Source of the DNA: Acidobacteriota bacterium | Lineage (GTDB): Bacteria > Acidobacteriota > UBA6911 | DNA length: 64,000 bases | NCBI GenBank assembly: GCA_963664705.1 | Contig: OY761556.1 | Coordinates: 896,001-960,000, forward strand | Reading direction: 5' to 3' | Shown: piece after piece, positions 43,429 through 60,510 of the stretch | Layout of the letters: each line of letters opens with the position of its first letter | Position numbering within the stretch: position 1 is the first letter of the stretch | The notes under the pieces: generated by a model | Database searches by the model: none | Told to the model about the DNA's origin: nothing | What the model saw: the letters and a program-made list of their open reading frames with translations, nothing else | Program-made: the position numbers and the translations under genes

Positions 43429-44139
43429 TTACCTGGATTTGGGCCGGAGGATGGCCCTCTCCCCCTGGTAGCTCAGCACGACTCCTTCGGCCGTAATGCT
43501 TTCAAGGAGGTAGCGTCCGTCCACGTATTCTCCCTCCTGATATTTGTGGTCATTGATGAAGGCCATGCGTTCGGATTTGGTTTCTGAATACATGTGAATC
43601 GTCATGGTCATTTTTGCCATGGCTTCGCGCAGCGATAGCGGAGCTGCGGTTGCGGATGGCTCTTCCGTTGCGGGAGCCGGATTCGAGGGGCTTGCCAGCG
43701 GCCTGGCGGATGGTTTCTGTATCGGCTCGGCGGTTTCCGGCACCGGTCTGGGCCTGGGCGTGAAATCAGAGCCTGCGCCGGGTCTTCTTGAAGATGAAAT
43801 GGCATTTTCCTCGCGGGATTCTGCTTGCGTTTCGCTTGAAACCGGGGGATCGGATGGCACAGCCGCCCTGGGTGGCGCCTCTCTTGTCGCGAGGGAGGAT
43901 GACTGGGTTGCTTCTTCCATATGCTGGGCCGGAGAGCCGTTCTTCGTGCCCGTCTGTCTCCACAAAAGAACAGCCGTCAGGCAGAGCATGGCGATGGAGA
44001 TCAGGCAAACTCCCGCAATAACCCACGGACGTCTGGAGGGCGTTTCAGGCTCCGTGTCATGAACGCTCATCAGCGTCGGTACCTGCGAAATGGATCTCTC
44101 CCGCTCGGCTTTTTTAAGGGCATCCAGTATATAGGACAT
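43429..44139 (-). CDS. exeB: general secretion pathway protein B (ExeB/GspB)
   Basis: MSYILDALKKAERER; single TM; Pro-rich linker; IHMYS...RMAFIN...EG C-terminal domain. Confidence 0.85.
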   Translation of the reverse strand: MSYILDALKKAERERSISQVPTLMSVHDTEPETPSRRPWVIAGVCLISIAMLCLTAVLLWRQTGTKNGSPAQHMEEATQSSSLATREAPPRAAVPSDPPVSSETQAESREENAISSSRRPGAGSDFTPRPRPVPETAEPIQKPSARPLASPSNPAPATEEPSATAAPLSLREAMAKMTMTIHMYSETKSERMAFINDHKYQEGEYVDGRYLLESITAEGVVLSYQGERAILRPKSR

Positions 44140-44157
44140 GCTATAGATCTCCCTTTT

Positions 44158-45834
44158 CTAGCGAATGTCCCTGGACAGCGTGGGCGAATCCGGGCCGCTG
44201 AAGGCGGTTGCGATGCGAACCAGCGTTTCACTACCGATAAAACCATCCTGGATCAGCAATCGATCTTTCTGAAAACGCAGGACGCGCTGTTTCAGCTCCT
44301 CGTCATAGGCATCTTTCGAGGCGGGGCTAGGCTCTCTCTTTTCCAATGCGTCCATGGCTCGACGGATCCAGAGGACGTTGGCTCCACTGGCACCGGTTGA
44401 CAACTGGTAGGGAGGAGGAAACGGGGGCTTCCATAGAAGGATGAACGAGCCATCCCAGATCTTATCGACATCGGAAAGCGGAAAGGGCCGTTCCCGCCCC
44501 GCAATGGATAGCGTTGCCGTTTTGTCATCCAGTCCAACAAGGGCCACATGTTTACGGCCACCCGTTGGCAATGGGATTTCAAGAATCGCCGGCAAATTAT
44601 ACCTGCGCAGCTTCGGCCAGTTTCCTGTCTGGAAAATGCACTCGAGACCGTGAGCCTTGGCGATCGTGCACCCCAGCTCTCCCGGATTGGATGCAACCTT
44701 CACTCCCCACCGGGCGTAAATATCTGCAAAAGCAGAGGATGAGGCTGGCAGGAGGTCGATCAACCTGGCTGAGGACGTAATGGCCGGGAGCTTGTTGCCG
44801 GCGGGTGTTTCGGGTGCGGCGGGGACCGGGCTTGTTTCAACAGGAGGACTGACCTTAGTTTCCGGCTTGACCACCCCAGCCGCGGCCGCATGGACAGATG
44901 GCAGCGCAGCTTTCGGCGCAGAAGAGGATTTGGCTGTTTTGAAATAGACGGCACCGACGCCCATCGCCGCAACCAGGAGCATCAGTGCCGGAATCCATGC
45001 AAGCCGGTATTTGCGATACCATGGGACAACGCCGCGCGTTTCGCGGCTCGCCCGGCGGACGATGGCTGCGCTGACTTGCTGCCTGTTTTGCGCATAAGCT
45101 CCCAAAAGGGCACGGTCGCAAAGGATATTGACCAGTCGCGGTACTCCGCCAGAGAGTCGATAGATGCTGCTGATCGCGAATTTTGTGAATAGAGGGTCTC
45201 TCCTGCCGGCAATCAGCAATCTGTGATGGATGTAGGCAACCGTTTCATGCCGGGAAAGCGGAAGCAGATGATAGCGGGCTGTGATCCGCTGCGCAATCTG
45301 CCTCAGATCTTTCCGCTTCAGAACTGTGAGCAGTTCAGGCTGGCCGATCAGGATGATCTGGAGGAGCTTTTCCTGCGATGTTTCAAGGTTGGTCAACAGG
45401 CGGATCTGCTCTAAAACATCCCCCTTGAGGTTTTGCGCTTCATCGATGATCAGCACCGTCTTCCTGTGCTTCTCGTGCGATTCGAGCAGATGCTGATTCA
45501 GCGCGTCTATCAGTGCCTTGATGCTGACGGTTTCGGCCGGATATTGGATTCGGAGTTCATCGCACACCGTGGCGAGCAGTTCAGTGGCGGTCAATCGGGG
45601 ATTCAGGATCAATGCGACATCGGTTTCGGGCGGCAGCTGTCTTACCAGGCATCGGGACAGAGTGGTTTTGCCGCACCCGACTTCTCCGGTCAGCTGCACG
45701 AATCCTCCGGGTTGCTGGACTCCGTAAAACAGATGGGCCAGGCCCTCTCGGTGTCGTTCGCTCATATACAGATACCGCGGGTCCGGTGTCAGAGAGAACG
45801 GAGGTTCGCTGAGTTTGAAATATTCGGTGTACAT
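44158..45834 (-). CDS. exeA: ExeA/GspA AAA ATPase with a C-terminal peptidoglycan-binding domain
   Basis: PFSLTPDPRYLY, GEVGCGKT, IIDEAQ, LIGQPEL, GVPRLVN; C-terminal RFQKDRLL.QDG.IG. Confidence 0.9.
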   Translation of the reverse strand: MYTEYFKLSEPPFSLTPDPRYLYMSERHREGLAHLFYGVQQPGGFVQLTGEVGCGKTTLSRCLVRQLPPETDVALILNPRLTATELLATVCDELRIQYPAETVSIKALIDALNQHLLESHEKHRKTVLIIDEAQNLKGDVLEQIRLLTNLETSQEKLLQIILIGQPELLTVLKRKDLRQIAQRITARYHLLPLSRHETVAYIHHRLLIAGRRDPLFTKFAISSIYRLSGGVPRLVNILCDRALLGAYAQNRQQVSAAIVRRASRETRGVVPWYRKYRLAWIPALMLLVAAMGVGAVYFKTAKSSSAPKAALPSVHAAAAGVVKPETKVSPPVETSPVPAAPETPAGNKLPAITSSARLIDLLPASSSAFADIYARWGVKVASNPGELGCTIAKAHGLECIFQTGNWPKLRRYNLPAILEIPLPTGGRKHVALVGLDDKTATLSIAGRERPFPLSDVDKIWDGSFILLWKPPFPPPYQLSTGASGANVLWIRRAMDALEKREPSPASKDAYDEELKQRVLRFQKDRLLIQDGFIGSETLVRIATAFSGPDSPTLSRDIR

Positions 45835-47573: not shown

Positions 47574-48332
47574 ATGGAGCGAGCATTGGATTACCGCAGT
47601 CGTGATATCAGCATACAAAACAAAAATCTATTGGAGTTCATTCAGCAACTGGCCGCCGGGGAATTCCTGATCCCGACCTTTCAGCGCCTTTTTGTTTGGG
47701 ACCCCGAGAACATCTCCAGCCTCTGGGACAGCATTTTTCACTACTATCCCATCGGAACCATACTCTGCTGGAAAACGCGTACGCGCCTGCATGTGCATCG
47801 GCAGGTGGGCGGATTTTTTATCCCGGAGAACGGGGACACGGACAACAGGCTTCAGTCGTATATTCTGGACGGCCAGCAGCGGGCCACATCGCTGCTGGTA
47901 TCCTTTTATGGCGGAGTCGGCAAAGTGAAGGAGCATTTTGCGTTCGACTATACGCTCTACTTTGATTTGACCACAGCCACCTTCTTTTTTGAAAAGGACT
48001 ATTATCGCCACCGATGGGAAGCCGAGCCGGATTTTCTTGTGAAGCTCCGGGAGATCCCGGATCTGCCACCGGATCATTGCGACCGGTTGTCATTGGTTCG
48101 CGGGTATTCCGATGCGATTGAAAGCCACCTCGAACAGCTGAAATATGTTTTTACCGATTACAACATACCGTTGATCAATCTCGGGGGGTACGATATCGCC
48201 GGCGTCTGCGCAATTTTCGAACGGATCAACCAGACTGGAGTGCGGCTTAAGAACATGGATATTTTGATTGCGAGAGGATTCAAAAATTACGCCACGGTTG
48301 TCGAGGAGGATTTCCCCATCACCTCCGAATAG
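47574..48332 (+). CDS. DUF262 (GmrS/ParB-Srx-like) domain protein, stand-alone
   Basis: PTFQRLFVW, LDGQQRATSL and IFERINQTG motifs. Confidence 0.85.
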   Translation: MERALDYRSRDISIQNKNLLEFIQQLAAGEFLIPTFQRLFVWDPENISSLWDSIFHYYPIGTILCWKTRTRLHVHRQVGGFFIPENGDTDNRLQSYILDGQQRATSLLVSFYGGVGKVKEHFAFDYTLYFDLTTATFFFEKDYYRHRWEAEPDFLVKLREIPDLPPDHCDRLSLVRGYSDAIESHLEQLKYVFTDYNIPLINLGGYDIAGVCAIFERINQTGVRLKNMDILIARGFKNYATVVEEDFPITSE

Positions 48333-48359: not shown

Positions 48360-49361
48360 TTATGCGTTTACGAATTTATTAAGTGATTCAAACTGTTCCT
48401 GCGTTCCGATCACCACCAGGACGTCATCCCGGTGAATCTGCGAGCTCGCTTTGGGCTGCAGATCAAAGGAGCCGTCGTTCTTCTTGATTGCCAGGATGAG
48501 CGCTCCGGAGTTGCCCCGAATATCCGCGTCACCCACCGTTTTGTTTACCAGTTGAGAGCTGGCCGGAATTGGCATTTCGAACAAACTGAAGTCGACCTGG
48601 CCTCCGTGCGTCACGAGATCCAGGAAGTCGCTGGCAACCGGATGGATGGCCAAAGCCGCCATCCTTATGCCGGAGATGAAATAAGGCGATATCACCCGGT
48701 TGGCGCCTGCCATGATCAGCTTTTTTTCCGTGTCCTTGATTCCCGCCCTGGCCACAATGTTCAGATTCGGATTCAGGACGCGGGCGGACAGCGTAACGTA
48801 AACATTGGCGACGTCGGAATCGGAGCAGGCAATAAGCCCGGTAGCCGTTTTGATGCCGGCTTCCAGCAATACGCTGTCAACCGTGGCATCTCCTATAATG
48901 CTGGGGACATTTTTGGCGCGCAGTTCGTCCAGCGTCTCCTTCTTGCTGTCGATTACAACAAACGGGACCTTGGAAGATTCAAAGACCTGTGCCACCTGGT
49001 GACCAACTCTGCCGAAGCCGCAGATGATATAGTGCTGCTTCAACTGGCTGATGATCTTGTCCATCCTTTTCCTCTTTCTGTATCCGGACATTTCCCCTTC
49101 AACAATAGTCTCCACCGCCTGGCCGGCAAGATAGATCGCGCTGCCCACTCCGCCGATGATGATAAATATCGTGAATACCCTGCCGCCGGATGAAAGGGGA
49201 TGGACCTCCTGGAATCCAACCGTGAACAGGGTTGTGATAACCATGTAGGTGGCGTCAAGAAACGAATAATGCTCCATGGATTCGTATCCGATGATGCCAA
49301 TGATCAGTACCGAAGCCAATATGATGGTTGCCGGGAGCAGCCTTCGAAATGGATGGTCCAT
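48360..49361 (-). CDS. potassium channel protein (2TM pore + TrkA-N/TrkA-C RCK)
   Basis: TTLFTVGFQE pore; ICGFGRVG, GDAT and AGANRVISP motifs. Confidence 0.9.
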   Translation of the reverse strand: MDHPFRRLLPATIILASVLIIGIIGYESMEHYSFLDATYMVITTLFTVGFQEVHPLSSGGRVFTIFIIIGGVGSAIYLAGQAVETIVEGEMSGYRKRKRMDKIISQLKQHYIICGFGRVGHQVAQVFESSKVPFVVIDSKKETLDELRAKNVPSIIGDATVDSVLLEAGIKTATGLIACSDSDVANVYVTLSARVLNPNLNIVARAGIKDTEKKLIMAGANRVISPYFISGIRMAALAIHPVASDFLDLVTHGGQVDFSLFEMPIPASSQLVNKTVGDADIRGNSGALILAIKKNDGSFDLQPKASSQIHRDDVLVVIGTQEQFESLNKFVNA

Positions 49362-49551: not shown

Positions 49552-50673
49552 TTGGCTCAGATTGAAATTGTCCCAGTGACCAGTGCCGGTGAAATGCGGC
49601 AGTTCATTCGCTTCCCATGGCGCATCTATCGCAACGATCCTTATTGGGTGCCCCCGTTGCTGCTCGACATGAAAAATCTCCTGGACAGGAAGAAGCACCC
49701 GTTTTTTGGCCATTCGTCTGCGGAATTTTTTCTCGCCCGCCGCCAGGGGGAGCCGGTTGGGCGTATTGCAGCTATCCTCAACAACAATCACAACTCGGTT
49801 CACAAGGAACGCACCGGTTTTTTTGGATTTTTCGAATCCATTAATGATGCCGGGGTGGCAACGGCGCTTCTGGAGCGTGCCGGACAATGGGTGCGCGAGC
49901 GCGGAATGGATCGAATGCGCGGACCGATGAACTATTCGACCAATGAGACGGTCGGCCTGCTCATAGAGGGGTTTGATTCACTCCCTTGCATCATGATGCC
50001 GCATAATCCGGCCTATTACGGCGACCTGATCGAGAAATCCGGATTTTCCAAAACAATGGACTTGTATGCATGGTGGCTGTTGACGGAGAAAGGTCTGAGC
50101 CCGAAGATCACCCGTGTAGGGGAAAGAGTTCTGAAAGATCAGGGAATCCGTGTGCGTTGCATCAATATGAAGGATTATTGGGGGGACGTTGCCATCATCA
50201 AACGGATTTATAACGATGCGTGGAGCGACAACTGGGGATTTGTGCCGATGACGGATGAGGAATTCCATCATATGGCCAAAGATCTCAAGATGGTTGTGGA
50301 CCCTCGCGTCGTTCTGATCGCGGAAAAGAACGAAGAACCGGTCGCCTTCTCCCTTGCGCTCCCTGATGTGAATCAGGCTTTGAAAAAGATCAATGGAAGA
50401 CTGTTTCCCTTCGGACTGCCGCGGCTTTTATACCTTACGAGGCACATACAGCAGGTTCGCGTCCTGGCACTGGGGATTTCCAAGAAGGTACAGAATTGCA
50501 ATGGGCTCGGGGCTGCGCTGTATTACGAGTCTTTCCGACGTGGCGTGGAGGCAGGATATCGCAGTTGCGAGTTTTCCTGGACACTCGAGATCAACGACCT
50601 GATCAACCGGAGTATGCAGCTGTTCGGGGCAGAGATCTATAAACGGTACAGGATTTTCGAAAAGCCACTGTAG
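49552..50673 (+). CDS. YghO-like GNAT acyltransferase, bacterial ceramide synthase (bCerS)-like
   Basis: FIRFPWRIY..DPYWVPPL, GRIAA, GFFGFFE, RGPMN, GLLIEGF, MMPHNPAYY, NDAWSDNWGFVP, LPDVN, SWTLE.N and YKRYRIF; TTG start. Confidence 0.75.
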   Translation: MAQIEIVPVTSAGEMRQFIRFPWRIYRNDPYWVPPLLLDMKNLLDRKKHPFFGHSSAEFFLARRQGEPVGRIAAILNNNHNSVHKERTGFFGFFESINDAGVATALLERAGQWVRERGMDRMRGPMNYSTNETVGLLIEGFDSLPCIMMPHNPAYYGDLIEKSGFSKTMDLYAWWLLTEKGLSPKITRVGERVLKDQGIRVRCINMKDYWGDVAIIKRIYNDAWSDNWGFVPMTDEEFHHMAKDLKMVVDPRVVLIAEKNEEPVAFSLALPDVNQALKKINGRLFPFGLPRLLYLTRHIQQVRVLALGISKKVQNCNGLGAALYYESFRRGVEAGYRSCEFSWTLEINDLINRSMQLFGAEIYKRYRIFEKPL

Positions 50674-50696
50674 CGGCGGCGATCCTTGCTCCCGCG

Positions 50697-52238
50697 TTAA
50701 ACTGACGCCTGCTTGCCGCCGAGCTTTGCCAATTCTTCCGCCAGCGCCTGAACAGCGTACCGGATTTCCTCTTCGGTATGGGTTGCGCTGATAAAAAAGC
50801 GCAATCGTGCCGCATCTTCCTCCACGGCGGGATGGACAATAGGCTGAACGTTTATCTTGCGTTCAATCAAGGCCTGGCTTAGCTGCATGCATCGGATGGA
50901 ATTGCCGATGATCGCCGGAATTACCGCAACTCCAACGGCGTGGCCGGTATTGATTCCATGGCTGCGAGCCAGGTCAAGGAAAAGCTTGGATCGGTCTCGA
51001 AGCTGTTCGACCACTTTGGGAAGGCGCTGCATCAGTTCAAGGGCTTTGAGTGCCGCGGCCGCGTTGGGTGGTGCCATCCCTACGGAATACAGGAATCCGG
51101 GTGCCGTAAACTTGAGATAACGGACCAACGGGCTGTTTCCGGCAATGTAGCCTCCACAGCTTGCGAACGATTTGGAAAGAGTACCCATCCAGAGATCGAC
51201 CTCAACCGGGTCCACCCCGGGGAAGTGATGTGCGACGCCTCGCCCTGATGGCCCAAGGACTCCGAGCGAATGCGCCTCGTCGATCAGGAGGTTGCACTGG
51301 AATTTCTTCTTTATTTCAATAAGCCGCGGCAGGTCGCAGATATCTCCATCCATGGAAAAGAGGCCTTCAGAACAGATGAGCGTACGCCGGTATTGGGCGC
51401 GAATCTGTCCCAGGATATGCTCCAGATCCGCTGTGTCCGCATGCTTGAATGGCAGTCGTTTGGCTCCGGAAAGGTAGATGCCCTGGAGAATACTGTCGTG
51501 GCAGAGAGAATCGTGCAGGACCAGGTCGTTCTTATCGTACAGGTGTCCAATGGTGGTTACATTGGTGGCATGCCCGCTTACAAAGACAACCGCATCCTCG
51601 ACGCCAATATGTTGGGCAATTCCTTTTTCAAGATCCCGATGAATTTGTCGTTCGCCGGAAACCGGGCGGCTGGCGGAAACGGAAGTGCCGTATCGGTCGA
51701 TGGCGTCTTTGGCGGCGGCACTCACCTCAGGATGACCGGATAGGCCGAGGTAGTTATAGCTCGAGAAATTCAGCATATCGATTCCATCGATAACGCTGTG
51801 GTTTCTGGCTGTGCCTTCATGAACATGAAAATATGGATTTCTCAATCCGGCCGCTTCAATCTCCAGCAGGCGTTCTCCGATGCTTTTTATCTCCGGGAAC
51901 TTTCTTGTATCCCAAAATTCCGGGTTGGCACCTCCCGGTTGCGGCACCGCTTCGCCTTGAGCTTCAGGCGATTCTTCGGGCAGGCTAAATCCGGACGGAA
52001 GCTTCTTGTGGATCAAATCCAGCAGATCGCGCACATTGCTGAGAGACGCCACTTCTTCATCTGCGATGCGGATCGAAAGGTTTTCCTCGAGCACGCCGAT
52101 CACTTCCATCATGGCTACAGAATCCAGACCCAGTTCAGAAATGGGCGTAGCCGGGCTCAACTGATCGAAGTCCCTCAAATTGACATCGTAAACCGCAGCC
52201 CTGAGCACATTTAGAAGATTTTGATCCGTGCTTTCCAT
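50697..52238 (-). CDS. ACP-fused alpha-oxoamine synthase (serine palmitoyltransferase-like)
   Basis: N-terminal ACP (LGLDSV); NFSSYNYLGL, FSMDGD, DEAHS and GTLSKS (PLP Lys). Confidence 0.85.
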   Translation of the reverse strand: MESTDQNLLNVLRAAVYDVNLRDFDQLSPATPISELGLDSVAMMEVIGVLEENLSIRIADEEVASLSNVRDLLDLIHKKLPSGFSLPEESPEAQGEAVPQPGGANPEFWDTRKFPEIKSIGERLLEIEAAGLRNPYFHVHEGTARNHSVIDGIDMLNFSSYNYLGLSGHPEVSAAAKDAIDRYGTSVSASRPVSGERQIHRDLEKGIAQHIGVEDAVVFVSGHATNVTTIGHLYDKNDLVLHDSLCHDSILQGIYLSGAKRLPFKHADTADLEHILGQIRAQYRRTLICSEGLFSMDGDICDLPRLIEIKKKFQCNLLIDEAHSLGVLGPSGRGVAHHFPGVDPVEVDLWMGTLSKSFASCGGYIAGNSPLVRYLKFTAPGFLYSVGMAPPNAAAALKALELMQRLPKVVEQLRDRSKLFLDLARSHGINTGHAVGVAVIPAIIGNSIRCMQLSQALIERKINVQPIVHPAVEEDAARLRFFISATHTEEEIRYAVQALAEELAKLGGKQASV

Positions 52239-52382
52239 GTTCTCACCTGATTAATGTAATACTGTTGAGGCTGTCCTCAGCCGAAGTCAGGCATCATACC
52301 ATAGGTGCTTCGACGTCTTACAGGAAGACATGCACTTGTTGAGTATGGAGGCGGTTTGGCGGTAGGGAAGGGAGGGTGCAGC

Positions 52383-54104
52383 TTAACCTAGAACAAGGCT
52401 TTCGGCACGCTGGGGCGTAGCGCATTGGTTCGAATTGCCCAGCAGGCCATCTTCGAACAGCGCCTTGGTCCTCCGCCGCTGCAGCTTTCCGCTGGAAGTC
52501 TTGGGAATGGATCCTCGCCCGACCAGGACAACCTTATCCACGGAAAGGCTAAAGGCAGAACGAACCTGGTCACTAACGGCGCGGGCCAATGCCACATTAT
52601 CCTGCATGGTGGTTTCTGCGATGATGATCAGCTTCTCGGTGGATTCCCCATCAACCGAGAATGCCACGACGCTTCCTTTTCGGATTCCGGATATCTCCTC
52701 GACCACCCACTCAATGGCCTGTGGCGGATAGTTGCGTCCATTGATGATAACCAGATCCTTCTGTCTGCCCGAAATATATAGATCCCCGTTCAGGATGAAT
52801 CCGAGATCCCCTGTGTGCAGCCATCCCCCTTTCAGGAGCTGGCTGGAGGCCTCCGGGTTTTGAAAGTAGCCGGGAGTGACGCTGGGGCCCTTGAACACAA
52901 TTTCGCCGACCTTCCCCTCGGGGAGCGATTTGCCCTTCTCATCCAGAATTCTGAGTTCGTGTTCTCTGAAGGTCCGTCCGCAGGAAACGAGTTCAAATCT
53001 CTTCTTGGGATCTCCGTCGTCATCACCATTCAATGGCACCGCAACGTTTTTTGACTCGTACAGATGCCGGTTGAGTACCAGCTTTCGTACGGGGCGGTGC
53101 AAATGATCAAACGCGATCGCAAGCGTCGCCTCGGCCATCCCGTAGCAAGGCATGATGGCGTGCGATTTGAGTCCCCAGGGTTCGAAGGTGGACAGGAATT
53201 TTTCCATTGTCCTGGGATTGATCGGTTCGGCGCCGCATCCCAATACACGCAGGCACGACAGATCCAGTTCCATCCTGGACTTTTTCGGTGCGCGCTTGGT
53301 CGCAAGATCGAATGCGAAGTTGGGGCCGAAGGTAATCGATGCCCGATATTTGTGTACTGTTTCCATCCAAACCGCGGGGTGTTTTACAAATGCAATCGTC
53401 GGAATGAATATCGCCGGTATCTGCGCCACGAGAGTCGAAATGACGAATCCGATCAAACCCATGTCGTGATACAACGGAAGCCAGGAAACCGCCCGGTCAA
53501 AATCCGGCTTTATCTCCAGGGTCTCGATAATTGCATGAGCATTTGCAATGAGGTTGCGGTGCGTTACCACAACGCCGCGCGGAGCCGAGGTGGATCCGGA
53601 GGTGAACTGAAGGAAACATGGATCGTCAGGCTTGATAGTGAATTCCTGCAGAACGATATCCGGGTCGGCATTTCTCAGCCGCTGAACATTCAACAGCTCT
53701 TTTAGTGCAGGCAGACGGGAGAGAAGAGGATCCAGGACAGGGATAAAATCCCCGGTGGTGATCAACGCATTCGCGCCGGAAACACGCAGGATACCGGTCG
53801 CCCGCTCGAGATAGTTGTCCATTCGGCCAAGCGCCAGCGGGGGATAAAGCGGAACGGGCATAAGCCCGGCAACGATGGTGCCCAGGAATGTGAGGACAAA
53901 GTCTTCCGGAGAGTTCAGCACAAGGGCAACACGGTCTCCCTTTGCCAGACCCATCGCCTGGAGAGAAGCTCCGATGCGCTTCGCTTCCTTAAAAACGTCG
54001 GCAAAAGACCAGTCCGTGGGATTCAGGTCGTTATCAAGGAACGTATAGCCTTTGTGCGTTATAGACGAAGCCGCATCGCGGGCATCGGTAAGCGTTCCTA
54101 ACAT
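52383..54104 (-). CDS. fatty acyl-AMP ligase (FAAL)
   Basis: FLQFTSGSTSAPRGV, SWLPLYHDMGLIG, PCYGMAEATL, TGDLGF, GRQKD and PKTSSGKLQR motifs. Confidence 0.9.
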   Translation of the reverse strand: MLGTLTDARDAASSITHKGYTFLDNDLNPTDWSFADVFKEAKRIGASLQAMGLAKGDRVALVLNSPEDFVLTFLGTIVAGLMPVPLYPPLALGRMDNYLERATGILRVSGANALITTGDFIPVLDPLLSRLPALKELLNVQRLRNADPDIVLQEFTIKPDDPCFLQFTSGSTSAPRGVVVTHRNLIANAHAIIETLEIKPDFDRAVSWLPLYHDMGLIGFVISTLVAQIPAIFIPTIAFVKHPAVWMETVHKYRASITFGPNFAFDLATKRAPKKSRMELDLSCLRVLGCGAEPINPRTMEKFLSTFEPWGLKSHAIMPCYGMAEATLAIAFDHLHRPVRKLVLNRHLYESKNVAVPLNGDDDGDPKKRFELVSCGRTFREHELRILDEKGKSLPEGKVGEIVFKGPSVTPGYFQNPEASSQLLKGGWLHTGDLGFILNGDLYISGRQKDLVIINGRNYPPQAIEWVVEEISGIRKGSVVAFSVDGESTEKLIIIAETTMQDNVALARAVSDQVRSAFSLSVDKVVLVGRGSIPKTSSGKLQRRRTKALFEDGLLGNSNQCATPQRAESLVLG

Positions 54105-54333
54105 AAACTCCCCATAAGACCGAAACGCGTCACGTTAACGCTTGATTTCCTAATTATTAGCCATGGGCAAATCGAAAATCCGGCCGCCTCGAGTGCCTGT
54201 GGGCTGCTATCAATAAACATATCCGGATGACGCATCGAACATAGCCTTTTTCTGTCAGACTTGCAATGAGTTTCCGTTATTCGGCCTTCCATTTGTTTGC
54301 ATATCCCAGGATTAGAATTTCGTAATGTAAGGG

Positions 54334-55326
54334 TCACAGCCACCCATGGTTCCGGTACCATTCGACGGTGCTCCGCATGCCGTCTTGCAGGTTGATTTGC
54401 GGACTAAACCCCAGGAGCTTGCGTGCCTTCGTTGTGTTGCATAGCCAGCAGGGGTGCAGGAGTTCCCTTACTTTCTGGCTGCTGACCGTTGAGGGTCGCT
54501 TGGTAATGCCCGCCCACAAATCCCCGGCAAAACCAGCCATCTTGGCAATAAGCGGCGGGAAAGCAATTCTGCGATATGTTTTGGCCAACTCCTGAGCGAT
54601 CGTGCGACCGACTTCATCCCAGGTATATATTTCCTCACGCGAAATAAAGAAGACCTCGCCCGAGGCGATGGATAGCTCTCCGGCAAGGATAAGGGCATCG
54701 GCCAAGTCGTCGACATGGATGAGGCTGAAACGCCGTGTGAAGCGGCCTGGAGTAAAGAGACAGCCCCGCTGAATCATGCGGAAGATCAAAAGTGTTTCAC
54801 GATCGCCGGGTCCATAAACAGCGGAAGGACGCAGAATCGCAACGTGAAAAGCTTTGGCAAAGCGCAGCACCTCTGCCTCGGCCGCCAGTTTACTTTCTCC
54901 GTACCAGGAAATCGGCTTGGGCGGATAGTCTTCGGTGAGGCCCGTTCCATCGGAGCTTGGACCGGCGGCGGCAAGGCTGCTCACGTGAACAAAGCGGCGA
55001 ATACCGGAACTTTCCGAAAGAGCTTCCAGGAGTTGTCGTGTGCCGATCTGGTTGGTTTGGAAAAAGGCATCGCGATTGGCGGCCTTGATGGCTCCGGCAA
55101 CATGATAAACAGTTTCGATCCCCGTTACAGCCTTGCGCATGCCTGCCGCATTTCCCAGATCTGCGAGTTGCAGCCGGATCGGCATTTTTGCGAGCGCGCG
55201 CGTGTCACTCGTGCTGCGCACGAGGCAGGTAACCGCATAGCCCTTTTCAATCAGTTTCCGGACGAGGTTGATTCCGACGAATCCTGTCGCACCTGTAACC
55301 AGCACTGCGGGTTTTATTTCAGTCAT
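54334..55326 (-). CDS. extended SDR / NAD-dependent epimerase-dehydratase (candidate ceramide or 3-keto reductase)
   Basis: VTGATGFVG, SSLAA, YGESK and RPSAVYGPGD motifs. Confidence 0.85.
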   Translation of the reverse strand: MTEIKPAVLVTGATGFVGINLVRKLIEKGYAVTCLVRSTSDTRALAKMPIRLQLADLGNAAGMRKAVTGIETVYHVAGAIKAANRDAFFQTNQIGTRQLLEALSESSGIRRFVHVSSLAAAGPSSDGTGLTEDYPPKPISWYGESKLAAEAEVLRFAKAFHVAILRPSAVYGPGDRETLLIFRMIQRGCLFTPGRFTRRFSLIHVDDLADALILAGELSIASGEVFFISREEIYTWDEVGRTIAQELAKTYRRIAFPPLIAKMAGFAGDLWAGITKRPSTVSSQKVRELLHPCWLCNTTKARKLLGFSPQINLQDGMRSTVEWYRNHGWL

Positions 55327-55438: not shown

Positions 55439-57610
55439 CTAAAGAAGCAATACGGAGAGTAATAAAAGTGGAATCATGAGATAGGAAGTCATTGCCATGC
55501 CGACAAGAGGCGCAAAAAACAGGCTGGCCAGGATCGATCCAAGACAACCCCCGATAAGATCAGCGGCATAAAGGGGGGTAACTGCCGCACGTTGATCGGA
55601 TGCGTCGTGGAAGCCGGCGTAGGCGAAGATTGCGGCCACCAGGATTCCGGTCATGACCAGGAAGGCAAAGCACTGTGAAAGGGAGGCAATGGCTCCCGCC
55701 GCTATTTGCCTGCCCATTACTCCGCTAAGAATGACAAGGCTTCCCAACAGGAGGATGCCGAGAGTCTTGGGCGGATTGAGACTGAGCCTCTCAATGACAT
55801 AGCATCCCAACGCCAAACCGGCCATAAAGCCTGTAAGAAGAAGTCCCAGGTCTTGGAAGAGCACACCGCATTTGGTCTGGAAATATAAAATCAGCACGGT
55901 TTCCAAGGTCATTCCCGAAAAGGCGACAACTCCCATGAGCAGCGCGCGCCGGATTGGCCAGCGAGCCCAGGTCAGCAGCAATGCCGGGATGCTGATAGCC
56001 AGCAGCCAAAGTACTTTGCGGTCAAAACGGACTTCGGGAATGGAGGGATCCCAATACCGGGCGGATGGGAGCAGTTTGGAGAGCCAGATCATGGCGGTGT
56101 ACTGATAGCAAACAGGACGAATATCGGTGTTCATGGGTGCGCGGGAGGATTCAAGCGTTTTCGCGATTTCCTGAAAACGATCATTCGTGAATAGGTATCG
56201 CAGGTAAGGCGGCGATACAATTTTTGTCTTCAATTGCCTTTCGACAAATCTGGATGCCAGGAGCGCCGGATCCCTGGTAAGGGCTCCCATGGAACAGACA
56301 ACGACATTCGTGCTTCCGGGAATAAAAAGGACCTCTGAAAAAGCCGACCGGGCGGCACGGTAGATGCCTGTCATCCTTCGCGTCAATTGCGGACTCCAGA
56401 TGTTCTCGGACGATTGGAGGCTGAAGGCAATTACTCCATTCGGGTTCAGCTTTGCCCGGCACTGCCTGAAGAATTCGCTTGTGTAAAACCGATTGGCCTG
56501 TCCCGAGCTGGGTTCAGGCATGCCGATGAGAATCAAATCATAGGACAGGGCGGCTTCGAGAAACTGGCGGGGATCCGCGACAATGATCCGGACATTGCTT
56601 GCCTGCAGCGATTTTTGAATTTGCGGTGTCTGGTTGGGGGGCACCAAGTCCAACAGCGTTTGATTCAGCTCCACATAATCGACGACTTGGGGAGAGTGCA
56701 TCAAGACCTGGTAAACAGTGCCTTCAATGCCCCCGCCGAGGATAAGCACTCGCCGTGGATTGGAATGCTGGAGCGCCGCCAGATGAACAAATTCCTCCGG
56801 GCGTGTGGATTCCGTATCAAACAGCAGAGCATCATTCTCAAAAACGGAGACCTGCCCATCGAGAAACGTGACCGTGATTCTTGAATACGGGGAATCCTGG
56901 GCATCCACCAGCGTGGGATGGGTCCAGGCTGTCATTTGGCGGTCAAGCGTGGGAGCTTTCCATACCAGAAACATCAATCCGGCAACCAATGCCAGGGCAA
57001 GCGCCCGCATTTTTTCGAGGGAATGCCCGTCGAAATCCAGGAAGGAGCATCCGGCGGCGACCAATGCGCACAGGAGAGCAATAAGAAAATTCTGAAAACC
57101 GAAACGCAGCAGCAAGGTGGCGCTCAAACCGCCGGCAAGCCCGCCAATACTCTCAATGGCGTATGCCGTTGCCAGCGATCTTCCACTGTCAATCGCAACC
57201 CTGGCGCTCCAGCGGAAAAGAAGTCCGAGGAGCAAACCTACCGGAAGAATGGACGCACCGATTGCTGCAATCTGGGTGGGCAGGGGAAGATAGGCTCCAG
57301 GAAGATCGGTCAGCCGTAGCCGAATCGATCGGATAAAGGCGATGTCCAAAGGGAGAATGATGGCGAATAACAGGAAGAACAGGTTTATCAGAAAAATAGA
57401 CGGAGCGGATGACCGCGAGCGCCGGAGCAAGGTGCCGCATGCGGTTGAAAGCATCCATATCCCTAGTGCCAGTGTATAGACCAGTTCAATTCCATAAGAG
57501 GCCACGCTCAATTCGCGCAGCAGCACAACCTGCCCCAATATAGACAGGAATCCCACCCCCAGGAGATATCCAATGCTGGAGTCGGATCGACGCAATCCTT
57601 GCATAATCAT
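55439..57610 (-). CDS. polytopic membrane protein with an internal spermidine-synthase-like SAM-binding domain
   Basis: N- and C-terminal TM blocks (LGQVVLLRE, YAIESIGG, YAADLIGG) around DSPYSRI, EEFVH, VLILGGG, YVELN and NRFYTSEFF. Start uncertain. Confidence 0.8.
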   Translation of the reverse strand: MIMQGLRRSDSSIGYLLGVGFLSILGQVVLLRELSVASYGIELVYTLALGIWMLSTACGTLLRRSRSSAPSIFLINLFFLLFAIILPLDIAFIRSIRLRLTDLPGAYLPLPTQIAAIGASILPVGLLLGLLFRWSARVAIDSGRSLATAYAIESIGGLAGGLSATLLLRFGFQNFLIALLCALVAAGCSFLDFDGHSLEKMRALALALVAGLMFLVWKAPTLDRQMTAWTHPTLVDAQDSPYSRITVTFLDGQVSVFENDALLFDTESTRPEEFVHLAALQHSNPRRVLILGGGIEGTVYQVLMHSPQVVDYVELNQTLLDLVPPNQTPQIQKSLQASNVRIIVADPRQFLEAALSYDLILIGMPEPSSGQANRFYTSEFFRQCRAKLNPNGVIAFSLQSSENIWSPQLTRRMTGIYRAARSAFSEVLFIPGSTNVVVCSMGALTRDPALLASRFVERQLKTKIVSPPYLRYLFTNDRFQEIAKTLESSRAPMNTDIRPVCYQYTAMIWLSKLLPSARYWDPSIPEVRFDRKVLWLLAISIPALLLTWARWPIRRALLMGVVAFSGMTLETVLILYFQTKCGVLFQDLGLLLTGFMAGLALGCYVIERLSLNPPKTLGILLLGSLVILSGVMGRQIAAGAIASLSQCFAFLVMTGILVAAIFAYAGFHDASDQRAAVTPLYAADLIGGCLGSILASLFFAPLVGMAMTSYLMIPLLLLSVLLL

Positions 57611-57714
57611 GGGGTCAACTGGTTTCCTATGGTTGCGCCAAAAAGCCCAAATATGCGGCAAAATCGCGCCTTATGGGTCTGTTTTTCCATTTCCACTCAC
57701 TACTATTGAATCTA

Positions 57715-59274
57715 TTATTTTTCTCCCGGTCCGCCACCGGCGAATTGCGATTCGCTGAAGACGTCTGCCTGAAAGATCTGGAATTCGGCGCCCTGTTTCC
57801 AACAGCCGGATGTGATGCCTGCCTTTCTGCAGAGATTGTCGAGCATCTCTGTCCGGCTCCACTTATTTTCGGTTGCCACCTGCGGCAGGAAGACGGCGGA
57901 GCGTCCTGCCTTGGACAGCAGCACGCCATCGCGGCCTACGACGATTTCACTGACAGAGGCTATGGGCTGCATCGGCGTGAGCACAGAAATTTCAATCTCC
58001 AGGTTCTTGAGTTCACTCCATTCCACGGGAGTGAATCTGGGATCACTGAATGCCGATTGCAGCGACATCATGCCGACGGTTTTGCTCAGTTCGGTATTGC
58101 TGGCCATTAGCCCGATGCATCCCCGCAATTCTCCTTTTTTGCGCAGCGTTACGAAAGCTCCCTGCCGCACTTTCAACCTGGCGGGGAAATCAACGGTTGG
58201 CTGCGGGGCCTGGGGGGATAGGTGGTGAAGGATGGTTGCCCTCGAGAGAGACAGAAGCATCTTCTTTTCGGCGGGCTGAAGCGGCGTTGTGCCCGAAAGC
58301 CCGGGGATTTCGCGATCCAGTGCCTGGGCCGACGCTGCGCCCGAATCCAGTACAACAGCTCCGTACCCTACAATACGGGACCGATCTCCGCCGGGCGTAT
58401 CTCCTGAGTTCGCATAACTCGCCACAAAAGCGCGCCTGGCTCCAAGGCTTTTGGCCGCAGTTATTCCGGCAATAATGGCCGCTTCTCCACACGCCCTTGT
58501 TGCAAGATTGGGCACATCCAGTTCTTTCATCGTGGAGGCAAATCGGACCGTGTCGAGGGATGCGATGGCGTCCAGCGTCTGGTGGTCTGTTTTGGATGCA
58601 TTTTCATAGGATGGATAGTGGGACAGGTCGGAGCTGATCACGATCAATGCGCGACGATTCTTCAGTACTTTGCCCAACGCTTTTCCAAACCGGACGCACA
58701 TATCGTAATCGGGCGGATGAATGATGGCCGGCACAACAAGGGCTTTGGGGAAGAGTACCTGGATAAACGGAAGCTGTACCTCGATGGAATGCTCGGCAAT
58801 ATGGACCTGTCGGCTCTGAACGCAATCCTTGCATTCAGATAGCAGCGCGGCGGTGAGATTGGTGTCAACGGGAATTTCGCCCAGAGGCGTGCGCAGAGCG
58901 CCGTAATTGCCGAGGGAAACGCCCCTAAAATCCCCGGTTGTATGATTCACGCCAAGAATGACGATGGTGTCATAATTGACTCCCATCGCCTGTCGATAAC
59001 CATTCGCGCAAATTTGCCCGGAGTAAACATACCCGGCATGGGGGACAAGGATGGCGATAGGATTGCCGGCATTTCCCGTGGCGGAGCGCTTTAGGTATGC
59101 TTCGATGGCAGATCTCAGTTTTTCCGGGTCCGAGGGATAAAACTGGCCTGCAACTGCCGGAGGGCGGACATCGGTTTCCGCGGCGGATCCGATTTGGACT
59201 CCACAGAGAAGCAATACCATGGTTGCCGGAAGCATTTTCCAGCGGATATGCAAAACCGGAGAGATAAATCTCAT
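57715..59274 (-). CDS. amrB: AmmeMemoRadiSam system protein B (MEMO1)-protein A (AMMECR1) fusion with an N-terminal signal peptide
   Basis: RPPAVAGQFYP, PHAGYVYSG, EHSIEVQLPF, SSDLSHY and ACG; then GAFVTL..LRGCIG, DPRF and FLPQVA. Confidence 0.9.
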   Translation of the reverse strand: MRFISPVLHIRWKMLPATMVLLLCGVQIGSAAETDVRPPAVAGQFYPSDPEKLRSAIEAYLKRSATGNAGNPIAILVPHAGYVYSGQICANGYRQAMGVNYDTIVILGVNHTTGDFRGVSLGNYGALRTPLGEIPVDTNLTAALLSECKDCVQSRQVHIAEHSIEVQLPFIQVLFPKALVVPAIIHPPDYDMCVRFGKALGKVLKNRRALIVISSDLSHYPSYENASKTDHQTLDAIASLDTVRFASTMKELDVPNLATRACGEAAIIAGITAAKSLGARRAFVASYANSGDTPGGDRSRIVGYGAVVLDSGAASAQALDREIPGLSGTTPLQPAEKKMLLSLSRATILHHLSPQAPQPTVDFPARLKVRQGAFVTLRKKGELRGCIGLMASNTELSKTVGMMSLQSAFSDPRFTPVEWSELKNLEIEISVLTPMQPIASVSEIVVGRDGVLLSKAGRSAVFLPQVATENKWSRTEMLDNLCRKAGITSGCWKQGAEFQIFQADVFSESQFAGGGPGEK

Positions 59275-59316
59275 GCCTTGCTCCTTCGATGGTCTGCGTG
59301 TCCTGCTATTTGCCTG

Positions 59317-60510
59317 CTACGCCCAGACTCCCGCGATTTCTTTCCCGCAGTATTTGCAGGTGCCTCGGTTCATATGGATGCCTGCTATGAAGATGGAACT
59401 TCGTTCGATGACGACCTTCCCGCATCTCGGGCAGTAGGTTTGATTCCCGGGATGGTTGGGGACATTCCCGACATAGGCGTAATGAATCCCCTTTTCCATT
59501 GCATAGTTCCTGAAGCGCTCCAACGTTGCGATGGGAGTCGGCGGCAGGTTCAGCAGCTGGTAGTCGGGATGAAAGCGCGTGAAATGGATCGGAACATCCG
59601 GGCCGATTTCGCCCATGATCCAATCCACGAGTCCCTGCAGCATTTTTTTTGAGTCATTCAACGTCGGGACAACGAGATTTACGATCTCGAGATGAATGCC
59701 GCTTCTGGCAATCTGGCGGATGCTGTTGAGAACGGGCTGAAGCTCGGCGCTGCAGACTCTCCTGTAGAAATCCGGGCTGAAACCTTTCAGATCGATTTTG
59801 ATGGCATCCAGAACGCGGCACAGCTCAGACAGCGGTTCCGTGTTCATGAATCCGCAGCTGACCATGACGCATCGCAATTTCCTTTTCCTTGCAAGTTCGG
59901 CGGTGTCGGCCAGATATTCGATAAACACTGTAGGTTCATTGTAGGTAAAAGCAATTACCGGGGATTGTTTGGATTCCGCAGTACTGACCAGTTCGGCCGG
60001 CTGCACAAAAGGAACGCTGAAGTCCTCCGGTCGTGATTGAGAGATCTCCCAGTTCTGACAGAATTTGCAATGCAGGGGGCATCCGGAGGTGGCGAATGAG
60101 AACGCCTCCGATCCCGGAAGAAAATGGTAGAAGGGCTTTTTCTCAATGGGATCCACATGGATGGCAACGGGCCTTCCGTAGACCAGGCTGCGCAGCTCGC
60201 CGTCAACATTCATCCGCGCCCGGCATTTCCCCCGATCTCCGCTTTTCAATATGCAGCCCTGGGCGCACAGAAGACACTTGATGAAAGCAGGCTTGCCCGT
60301 ATGCGCCGCCGCCCGGAGGTATGTTTGCTGTCCGTGACAGACAGAACAGGCGGTTCCAGTTGAGGTCGAGGCCCAGTAGCGGGCTTTCGGAGCCATCCGT
60401 GCCAGGTCGGAAGTGCGGTCGAAGAACGACGGGTAGGCAAAAGCCAGACCTGCTCCAACAGTGGAGCCAAGGCCGGCCGCTGAAATGAGGAATTTGCGTC
60501 GGGAGATCAT
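59317..60510 (-). CDS. amrS: AmmeMemoRadiSam system radical SAM enzyme with a Tat signal
   Basis: SRRKFL plus hydrophobic stretch; DPIEKKPFYHFLPG, GCPLHCKFCQNWEISQ, FTYNEP, HFTRFHPDY, YVGNV and TYCPRCG. Confidence 0.92.
   Translation of the reverse strand: MISRRKFLISAAGLGSTVGAGLAFAYPSFFDRTSDLARMAPKARYWASTSTGTACSVCHGQQTYLRAAAHTGKPAFIKCLLCAQGCILKSGDRGKCRARMNVDGELRSLVYGRPVAIHVDPIEKKPFYHFLPGSEAFSFATSGCPLHCKFCQNWEISQSRPEDFSVPFVQPAELVSTAESKQSPVIAFTYNEPTVFIEYLADTAELARKRKLRCVMVSCGFMNTEPLSELCRVLDAIKIDLKGFSPDFYRRVCSAELQPVLNSIRQIARSGIHLEIVNLVVPTLNDSKKMLQGLVDWIMGEIGPDVPIHFTRFHPDYQLLNLPPTPIATLERFRNYAMEKGIHYAYVGNVPNHPGNQTYCPRCGKVVIERSSIFIAGIHMNRGTCKYCGKEIAGVWA

Follow-up and report, generated by a model that had tools for sequence, protein, structure and literature searches.

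The window considered here, a stretch of 64,000 nucleotides from the genome of an acidobacterium, contains a cassette of four genes that encode a tandem GCN5-related N-acetyltransferase (GNAT), an acyl carrier protein (ACP) fused to an alpha-oxoamine synthase (AOS), a fatty acyl-AMP ligase (FAAL) and an extended short-chain dehydrogenase/reductase (SDR). These genes quite probably specify a serine-based ceramide pathway that is fed by the FAAL and in which the usual serine palmitoyltransferase (Spt) has been displaced, with the activities, the amino acid and the chain lengths predicted from the sequence. A carrier-fused AOS derived from the release domain of a polyketide synthase (PKS) appears to have replaced the usual enzyme. 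The pathway call is supported by the presence of orthologues of bCerS, AasR and CerR, by the strict co-occurrence of the AOS with bCerS, and by a phylogenetic tree that keeps the AOS apart from BioF and Kbl, the two families whose grouping with it had been named at the outset as evidence against a ceramide pathway. Each part of the cassette is of a known kind, and what appears to be new is the combination of a FAAL-fed, ACP-fused, SgaB-type AOS with bCerS and CerR.

The proposed route would start with the priming of Ser40 of the fused ACP by a phosphopantetheinyl transferase encoded elsewhere (the genome has two PF01648 transferase genes). The FAAL would adenylate a long-chain fatty acid and load it onto this carrier, and a pyridoxal phosphate (PLP)-dependent dimer of the AOS (Lys356) would condense the acyl-ACP with L-serine, with loss of CO2, producing a 3-keto long-chain base. 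Finally, the tandem GNAT (bCerS) would attach the N-acyl chain and the SDR (CerR) would reduce the 3-keto group. The order of these two last steps is disputed, and the localisation data in the available part of one Caulobacter study favour acylation first (PMC11087976).

The predicted condensing enzyme and its polyketide-linked relatives

The affinities of the AOS were examined in a quick maximum-likelihood tree of 58 rows with SH-aLRT support. The AOS proteins of the genus form one group (SH-aLRT 99), which is sister (SH-aLRT 100) to the C-terminal AOS domains of synthases with the architecture KS-AT-KR-DH-AOS and falls within a group of 32 rows (SH-aLRT 100) including an SgaB-like protein of Pseudomonas and an RkpG-like protein of Sinorhizobium; canonical Spts form a distinct group (SH-aLRT 98), and Kbl and BioF are likewise separate. 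The labels RkpG and WcbT for capsule-locus AOS proteins are assumed; for the Sinorhizobium protein, the name RkpG comes from the gene order and is not given in its record. Over the AOS core, identity reaches 72% to a PKS-terminal AOS (P0120), 57.9% to the Pseudomonas SgaB-like protein and 51.4% to the RkpG-like protein, and amounts to 28-35% for three canonical Spts, 31% for the E. coli Spt and 30-36% for Kbl and BioF. The SgaB-like stand-in from Pseudomonas is identical to the window AOS in all 23 inspected columns and the RkpG-like protein in 21 of them, a comparison weakened by the fact that the columns were hand-picked, partly from presumed Spt active-site positions. A manual count by eye against the printed PfSgaB sequence (Fig. 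S6, PMC12134224) gave about 206 identities in 351 core residues, together with the same 23 positions.

Among the best plasmid matches of the AOS (48-55% identity) are AOS genes that adjoin type I PKS genes or form part of them, and two of these belong to capsule loci. A search against 1.84 billion cluster representatives gave mostly large proteins, with lengths above 700 residues for 132 of the 150 best matches, and the top representatives scanned were KS-AT-KR-DH-AOS synthases or fragments thereof. The ACP fusion is present in most of the 120 AOS homologues listed. By both its clade and its active-site motif, the window AOS is assigned to the polyketide-linked SgaB/RkpG group, whose member PfSgaB, according to the available part of its description, converts L-serine and acyl-CoAs into 3-ketosphinganines with alanine and glycine virtually excluded (PMC12134224). 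No PKS was found in or beside the cassette, either in the window or at the loci of the genus mates, and the FAAL and the fused ACP stand in that place. Planctomycete single-chain FAAL-ACP-AOS proteins of 1272-1284 aa (L006 5628-9482; L007 5694-9512) also fall into this AOS group, and the 17 kb of sequence fetched for them holds no bCerS.

The initial annotation had proposed a ceramide pathway with an Spt, and of this proposal the pathway stands on the grounds given above, whereas orthology with the canonical Spts was ruled out by a failed reciprocal test, a separate tree group and an approximately unbiased (AU) test. The reference for the reciprocal searches was the E. coli BL21(DE3) cluster yghO-aasR-epi-acpR-spt, standing in for the Caulobacter proteins, with its old locus tags mapped to the new ones from the gene order. 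With E. coli Spt as query, the second AOS of the genome, a Kbl, scores above the window AOS (216 versus 164 bits), and the window AOS finds in E. coli Kbl (193 bits) ahead of Spt (171) and BioF (150). Holding the genus AOS proteins and the canonical Spts as one clade was rejected (p-AU 5.7e-78, under LG+G4 with 33 of the 58 tree rows kept and 25 dropped). The PLP-lysine motif GTLSKS (residues 352-357 of ACP-AOS) cannot separate Spt from Kbl, since the Kbl of the same genome carries GTLSKA. The fold search with the ACP-AOS model is likewise non-discriminating, because Sphingobacterium SPT comes first and Kbl, BioF and ALAS trail it within a few orders of magnitude.

Predicted acyltransferase, reductase, ligase and carrier

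The four open reading frames are all intact (Table 1), and their coordinates and domains agree with the initial annotation, which had described an SDR, a FAAL and an ACP-fused AOS converging on a YghO-like GNAT and had counted five ceramide functions in four genes, each of which has a counterpart in the cassette. The minus-strand run of SDR, FAAL and ACP-AOS has intergenic spacings of 229 bp and 144 bp, and the convergent stops of ACP-AOS and GNAT are 23 bp apart. This convergent arrangement is not due to chance, because all but one of 20 cassette-bearing genus mates keep it and a majority of the homologues listed likewise have the ACP fusion. A promoter and terminator scan gave sites no commoner than in shuffled sequences (1 versus 4.5; 8 versus 7.3).

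Table 1. Features of the cassette in the window, and cassettes of the genus without a FAAL
Feature	Location	Strand	Description
GNAT (bCerS/YghO family, tandem)	49552-50673	+	373 aa, TTG start, weak PF00583; predicted N-acyltransferase (bacterial ceramide synthase)
ACP-AOS fusion	50697-52238	-	513 aa, PF00550 + PF00155
AOS domain, ~residues 106-513	50697..51923	-	SgaB/RkpG, PKS-off-loading group; PLP lysine K356; predicted serine palmitoyltransferase
Acyl carrier domain (~residues 1-80, Ser40 in GLDSV) and flexible linker	51924..52238	-	PF00550, E 4e-9
FAAL	52383-54104	-	573 aa, PF00501 + PF23024; predicted loader of the fused ACP (AasR role)
Extended SDR	54334-55326	-	330 aa, PF01370; TGATGFVG, YGESK; predicted CerR-type 3-keto reductase
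FAAL-less cassettes with drifting carrier motif	L055-L058, L090		G023, G015, G022, G004, G021

In the case of the GNAT, E. coli YghO finds it as the sole match in the genome (36%, E 1e-76), and the window protein in turn matches only yghO in E. coli (E 1e-78, 36-37% over the full length, 36% over 380 columns); a search of the genome found no paralogue. Its structural model shows a tandem-GNAT fold (pLDDT 92.7; top Foldseek matches 7Q3A, 5KF1 and 2WPW), and in the tree it clusters with other Acidobacteriota bCerS-like proteins. The NCBIfam search returned no family for this protein and the PDB sequence search no homologue. The reciprocal best match and the fold bear out the bCerS-type GNAT claimed for this gene, which is assigned as an orthologue of bCerS/YghO.

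The E. coli CerR homologue (an ECD_02852-type epimerase) finds the window SDR best in the genome (127 bits, versus 67 for the next), and the window SDR finds CerR best in E. coli (E 1e-30, versus 4e-23 for the next protein), both with modest margins. The tree places it with the SDRs encoded in spt-bcerS operons and separates it from five paralogues of the same genome. No N-terminal extension precedes its nucleotide-binding motif. Reciprocal match and tree placement point to a CerR orthologue, in agreement with the type first proposed for it.

E. coli AasR also finds the FAAL best in the genome (333 bits versus 114 for the next; 34-36% identity), and the FAAL finds AasR best in E. coli (E 6e-101 versus 6e-22). 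Its best NCBIfam match is PRK09192 (501.5 bits, under the cut-off of 600) and its best PDB match the E. coli FAAL 3PBK (E 6e-100), followed by other FAAL-type entries. The gene lies between SDR and ACP-AOS in 15 of the 20 genus-mate cassettes. The fused carrier, whose motif GLDSV spans residues 37-41, resembles E. coli AcpR weakly, and 100 of the 119 homologues examined share the DSV motif. As modelled (mean pLDDT 89), the fusion protein consists of a helical carrier bundle with high pLDDT, a low-confidence linker (89-100) and the AOS domain.

Distribution and history of the cassette

The occurrence of the cassette was followed in 29 other genomes of the genus and in 301 genomes of the phylum. 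Among the former, bCerS is present in 20, a close AOS (E <1e-190) in exactly those 20, and both are missing from the same nine, seven of which are 96-99% complete. In 19 of the 20, ACP-AOS and GNAT share a contig and converge on each other as neighbours, and in the last (G021) each is close to the end of a separate contig. Eighteen of the cassettes have the SDR upstream, the remaining two contigs ending within the FAAL, and none of five cassette-less genus mates tested has an orthologue-level SDR match, but only paralogues of 30-33%. One cassette-less genome (G001) shows an empty site, where the spermidine-synthase-like and GmrSD-like flanking genes are adjacent. The genus mates are kin and not independent samples, so this pattern shows that the module came or went as a unit, not that many separate events took place. 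In one genus mate (G017, L042 7019-8555) ACP and AOS are read in two frames, probably through an assembly frameshift, as the near-identical G029 has them fused. The lpxC gene is kept in the window genome and in 26 of the 30 genus genomes, with or without the cassette, and a ceramide replacing lipopolysaccharide is not indicated.

Across the phylum sample, a bCerS-like gene is found in 81 of 301 genomes (G082 included) and an SgaB-type AOS (E <1e-90) in only two, the window genome (G000) and G069. The latter carries a frame of 1805 aa with ketosynthase and SgaB-type AOS matches, with an extended SDR ahead of it (L129 7657-13904). Six Acidobacteriota outside the genus (G032, G066, G077, G096, G285 and G304) carry, next to bCerS, an AOS with 32-39% identity, and the five of these AOS proteins placed in the tree all fall with canonical Spts. 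Moreover, the window GNAT and SDR group with their counterparts from Acidobacteriota spt-bcerS operons. With a canonical-type Spt next to bCerS in these six, a replacement of Spt in this genus is likely, and in the simplest history bCerS and CerR would be inherited genes; the direction of the change is inferred from these groupings. The nearest named loci belong to uncultured Acidobacteriota (71-76% identity). With GC and GC3 of the four genes at 0.52-0.56, against 0.53 for the genome, composition gives no sign of a recent transfer.

Alternative readings, known systems and genomic surroundings

Several observations weigh against the proposed pathway. The trees are quick or FastTree reconstructions with sparse references and no Caulobacter sequence, FAAL and AasR share no resolved clade in them, and the support of the CerR group is limited to SH-aLRT 93-94. 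The AOS falls under the cut-offs of all three NCBIfam Spt models, which cover Rhodobacteria and Bacteroidota types (NF047599, NF047600 and NF047603; scores of 323.5/640, 249.5/500 and 196.4/670) and are narrow enough for Rubrobacter and Aureispira spt-operon proteins to fall short too. No AOS lies within 1.5 kb at 23 of 28 phylum bCerS loci, and seven of nine widened loci still lack one in the stretch fetched, so that the ancestral partner is seen in a minority. Finally, the FAAL is missing from five of the 20 cassettes, with the rest of the cassette kept, and no orthologue was found elsewhere in these five genomes (completeness 71-97%).

The absence of the FAAL in these five genomes is probably the result of one loss event. 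All 15 carriers that go with a FAAL read GLDSV, whereas the five others retain the serine within the motifs DST, TSA, NSA, NSA and NST, and carrier identity is 49% between the two groups versus 63.5% within the FAAL group (for the AOS, 77% versus 81%). Carrier conservation is therefore tied to the presence of the FAAL, which fits a FAAL that loads the carrier, and the acyl chain would plausibly be selected by it. The loss also suggests that the AOS may work with another donor, as a candidate switch to acyl-CoA; PfSgaB takes acyl-CoAs in vitro, as stated in the available part of its description (PMC12134224). A more far-reaching and only tentative proposal would see here a third ceramide route, in which a PKS release domain was cut off and fused to a carrier, with a FAAL picking a non-palmitate chain (for instance a branched acidobacterial fatty acid) that gives a distinctive sphingoid base, and in which one sub-lineage lost the FAAL, let the carrier decay and turned to CoA donors.

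That the AOS is a housekeeping BioF or Kbl in an incidental neighbourhood is extremely improbable. JGI calls most of its homologues 8-amino-7-oxononanoate synthase, BioF TIGR00858 is its top NCBIfam score (341.7/426 bits, below the cut-off) and Kbl its best E. coli match; the SgaB-like and RkpG-like proteins, in any case, have the same NCBIfam profile. However, the AOS also stays below the cut-off of the Kbl models (NF005394, TIGR01822; 301.7/460), neither bioB nor bioD was found above cut-off in a 98% complete genome, and the second AOS of the genome clears the Kbl cut-off, with Tdh encoded too, and these results, the tree and the co-occurrence with bCerS argue against this reading. The same logic could also operate, though this is unlikely, on alanine, glycine, cysteate or another amino acid, with 1-deoxyceramides, sulfonolipid-like products or other N-acyl aminolipids as the result. 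The specificity of an AOS cannot easily be told from its sequence, serine specificity leans on a single assayed relative of about 58% identity, and the available part of one study describes 1-deoxy and other unusual ceramides in anoxic waters and an Spt that can use alanine (PMC11334938). Against this, all 23 inspected columns match the SgaB-like protein and PfSgaB is serine-selective in the accessible text (PMC12134224), the window AOS has Ser190-Arg191 where Kbl has Val-Arg, and cysteate acyltransferases score less well in the sequence comparison (28EH, 177 bits, versus 239 for Sphingobacterium SPT).

There is a small chance that the long-chain base does form but that the SDR is something other than a CerR, in which case the product would stay a 3-keto (oxidised) ceramide or be reduced by another enzyme, and the SDR would tailor something else. 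Its identity to E. coli CerR is 28-31% at most, the genome has many extended-SDR paralogues, and its best NCBIfam match is HpnA (158/368 bits), but the reciprocal best match, the placement with SDRs of spt-bcerS operons and the distribution within the genus described above argue for CerR. A comparably low probability is given to a product other than a bulk membrane ceramide, either a lipid that carries or anchors a surface polysaccharide or an amino-lipid that is secreted, in line with what has been suggested for loci of the rkp/wcb type. Close stand-alone AOS relatives do adjoin capsule-export genes in Sinorhizobium, Pseudomonas and Acidisoma, and the plasmid of Acidisoma sp. PAMC 29798 (NZ_CP126995; L068 9780-25065) carries a bCerS-like gene, an SDR, an RkpG-like AOS and a sterol-desaturase-family gene within a capsule synthesis/export locus, hinting at a ceramide-type capsule anchor there. 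In the window, however, the cassette has neither a capsule, glycosyltransferase or export gene as a neighbour nor a linked PKS, and its bCerS and SDR follow the spt-bcerS-cerR lineage of the phylum.

Read as a ceramide pathway, the cassette represents the same five functions as the ceramide genes of Caulobacter crescentus and E. coli BL21(DE3), as far as the available parts of their descriptions go (PMC9386255, PMC11324152, PMC11087976). In E. coli, AasR, AcpR and Spt were assayed, and yghO and epi were named homologues of the Caulobacter N-acyltransferase and reductase, according to the accessible part of that work (PMC9386255). The FAAL-type ligase, the tandem GNAT and the extended SDR are reciprocal best matches of the E. 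coli proteins, a putative dedicated carrier is present, and in both the known clusters and the window bCerS is transcribed apart from the other genes. Unlike them, the window has a condensing enzyme that is no Spt orthologue, with the carrier fused to it. Nor was a second lptF/lptG locus found in the genome (which has one), and no head-group or transport gene is linked to the cassette, with one PF00781 kinase elsewhere in the genome.

The PfSgaAB(C) system of Pseudomonas fluorescens MYb115 shares with the window the AOS group and the inspected active-site residues. In the available part of its description, SgaB is fed by an iterative PKS and paired with a proposed KDSR-like classical SDR to yield very long sphinganines, and no bCerS is described for that cluster (PMC12134224), whereas the window has a FAAL and a fused ACP instead of the PKS, with a linked bCerS and a CerR-type extended SDR. 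A second locus of the genus mate G003 (L081 23-11684; C5:64000-84000) has another bCerS-like GNAT, 36% identical to that of the window and divergent from a type I PKS of 2594 aa, and together with an SgaB-type AOS (52%) and a short SDR it makes up an SgaABC-like cluster that includes a ceramide synthase; such a pairing is not described in the available part of the SgaB paper (PMC12134224). The C-terminal AOS domains of KS-AT-KR-DH-AOS synthases (P0120, P0128-P0130) are the nearest relatives of the window AOS (64-72% identity, sister group), but PKS-terminal and capsule-locus AOS proteins lie within large synthases of unknown product or beside a PKS, and the window protein is a didomain of 513 aa. 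The spt-bcerS-cerR operons known from other Acidobacteriota and from Actinomycetota and Bacteroidota (G032, G304, G077 and G096; plasmid records of Rubrobacter, Streptomyces and Aureispira) have bCerS and SDR linked in the same way (36-52% and 32-40% identity, respectively), and differ in an AOS of the canonical Spt group and in the lack of an adjacent FAAL or ACP in the stretches examined. A literature search that reached a minority of subscription journals and part of the supplements turned up no account of bCerS together with an ACP-fused or SgaB-type AOS.

The cassette would connect the bCerS/CerR ceramide pathway with the polyketide-linked SgaB route, which are described in separate publications. 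If so, two different branches of the oxoamine synthase family have each supplied an enzyme for the opening step of ceramide synthesis in bacteria. Under the tentative proposal of a third route, the FAAL-less sub-lineage would capture in nature the same change from ACP to CoA donors by which proteobacterial and Bacteroidota Spts differ. Databases label such AOS proteins as biotin enzymes, and surveys that keep proteins clustering with known Spts could drop such producers. This uncultured, LpxC-encoding genus of Acidobacteriota is a candidate source of environmental ceramides, and a distinctive sphingoid base, if confirmed, could mark these bacteria in soils and sediments. As a compact module of two proteins, FAAL and ACP-AOS would be simple to assay.

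Upstream of the SDR, and in the same orientation in most genus mates, lie AmmeMemo (Memo and AMMECR1), radical SAM and fused membrane/spermidine-synthase-like genes (window 55439-60510, minus strand), which were rejected as parts of the cassette, being still present in the cassette-less genomes G001 and G025. On the other side, the cassette is flanked by a gene for a TrkA-type potassium channel (48360-49361, minus strand) and by a stand-alone gene for a GmrSD N-terminal (DUF262-type) domain (47574-48332, plus strand), which is kept there across the genus. Further away (43429-45834, minus strand), a Walker A ATPase and a short membrane-anchored partner presumably resemble ExeA and ExeB of type II secretion, a likeness drawn by eye.

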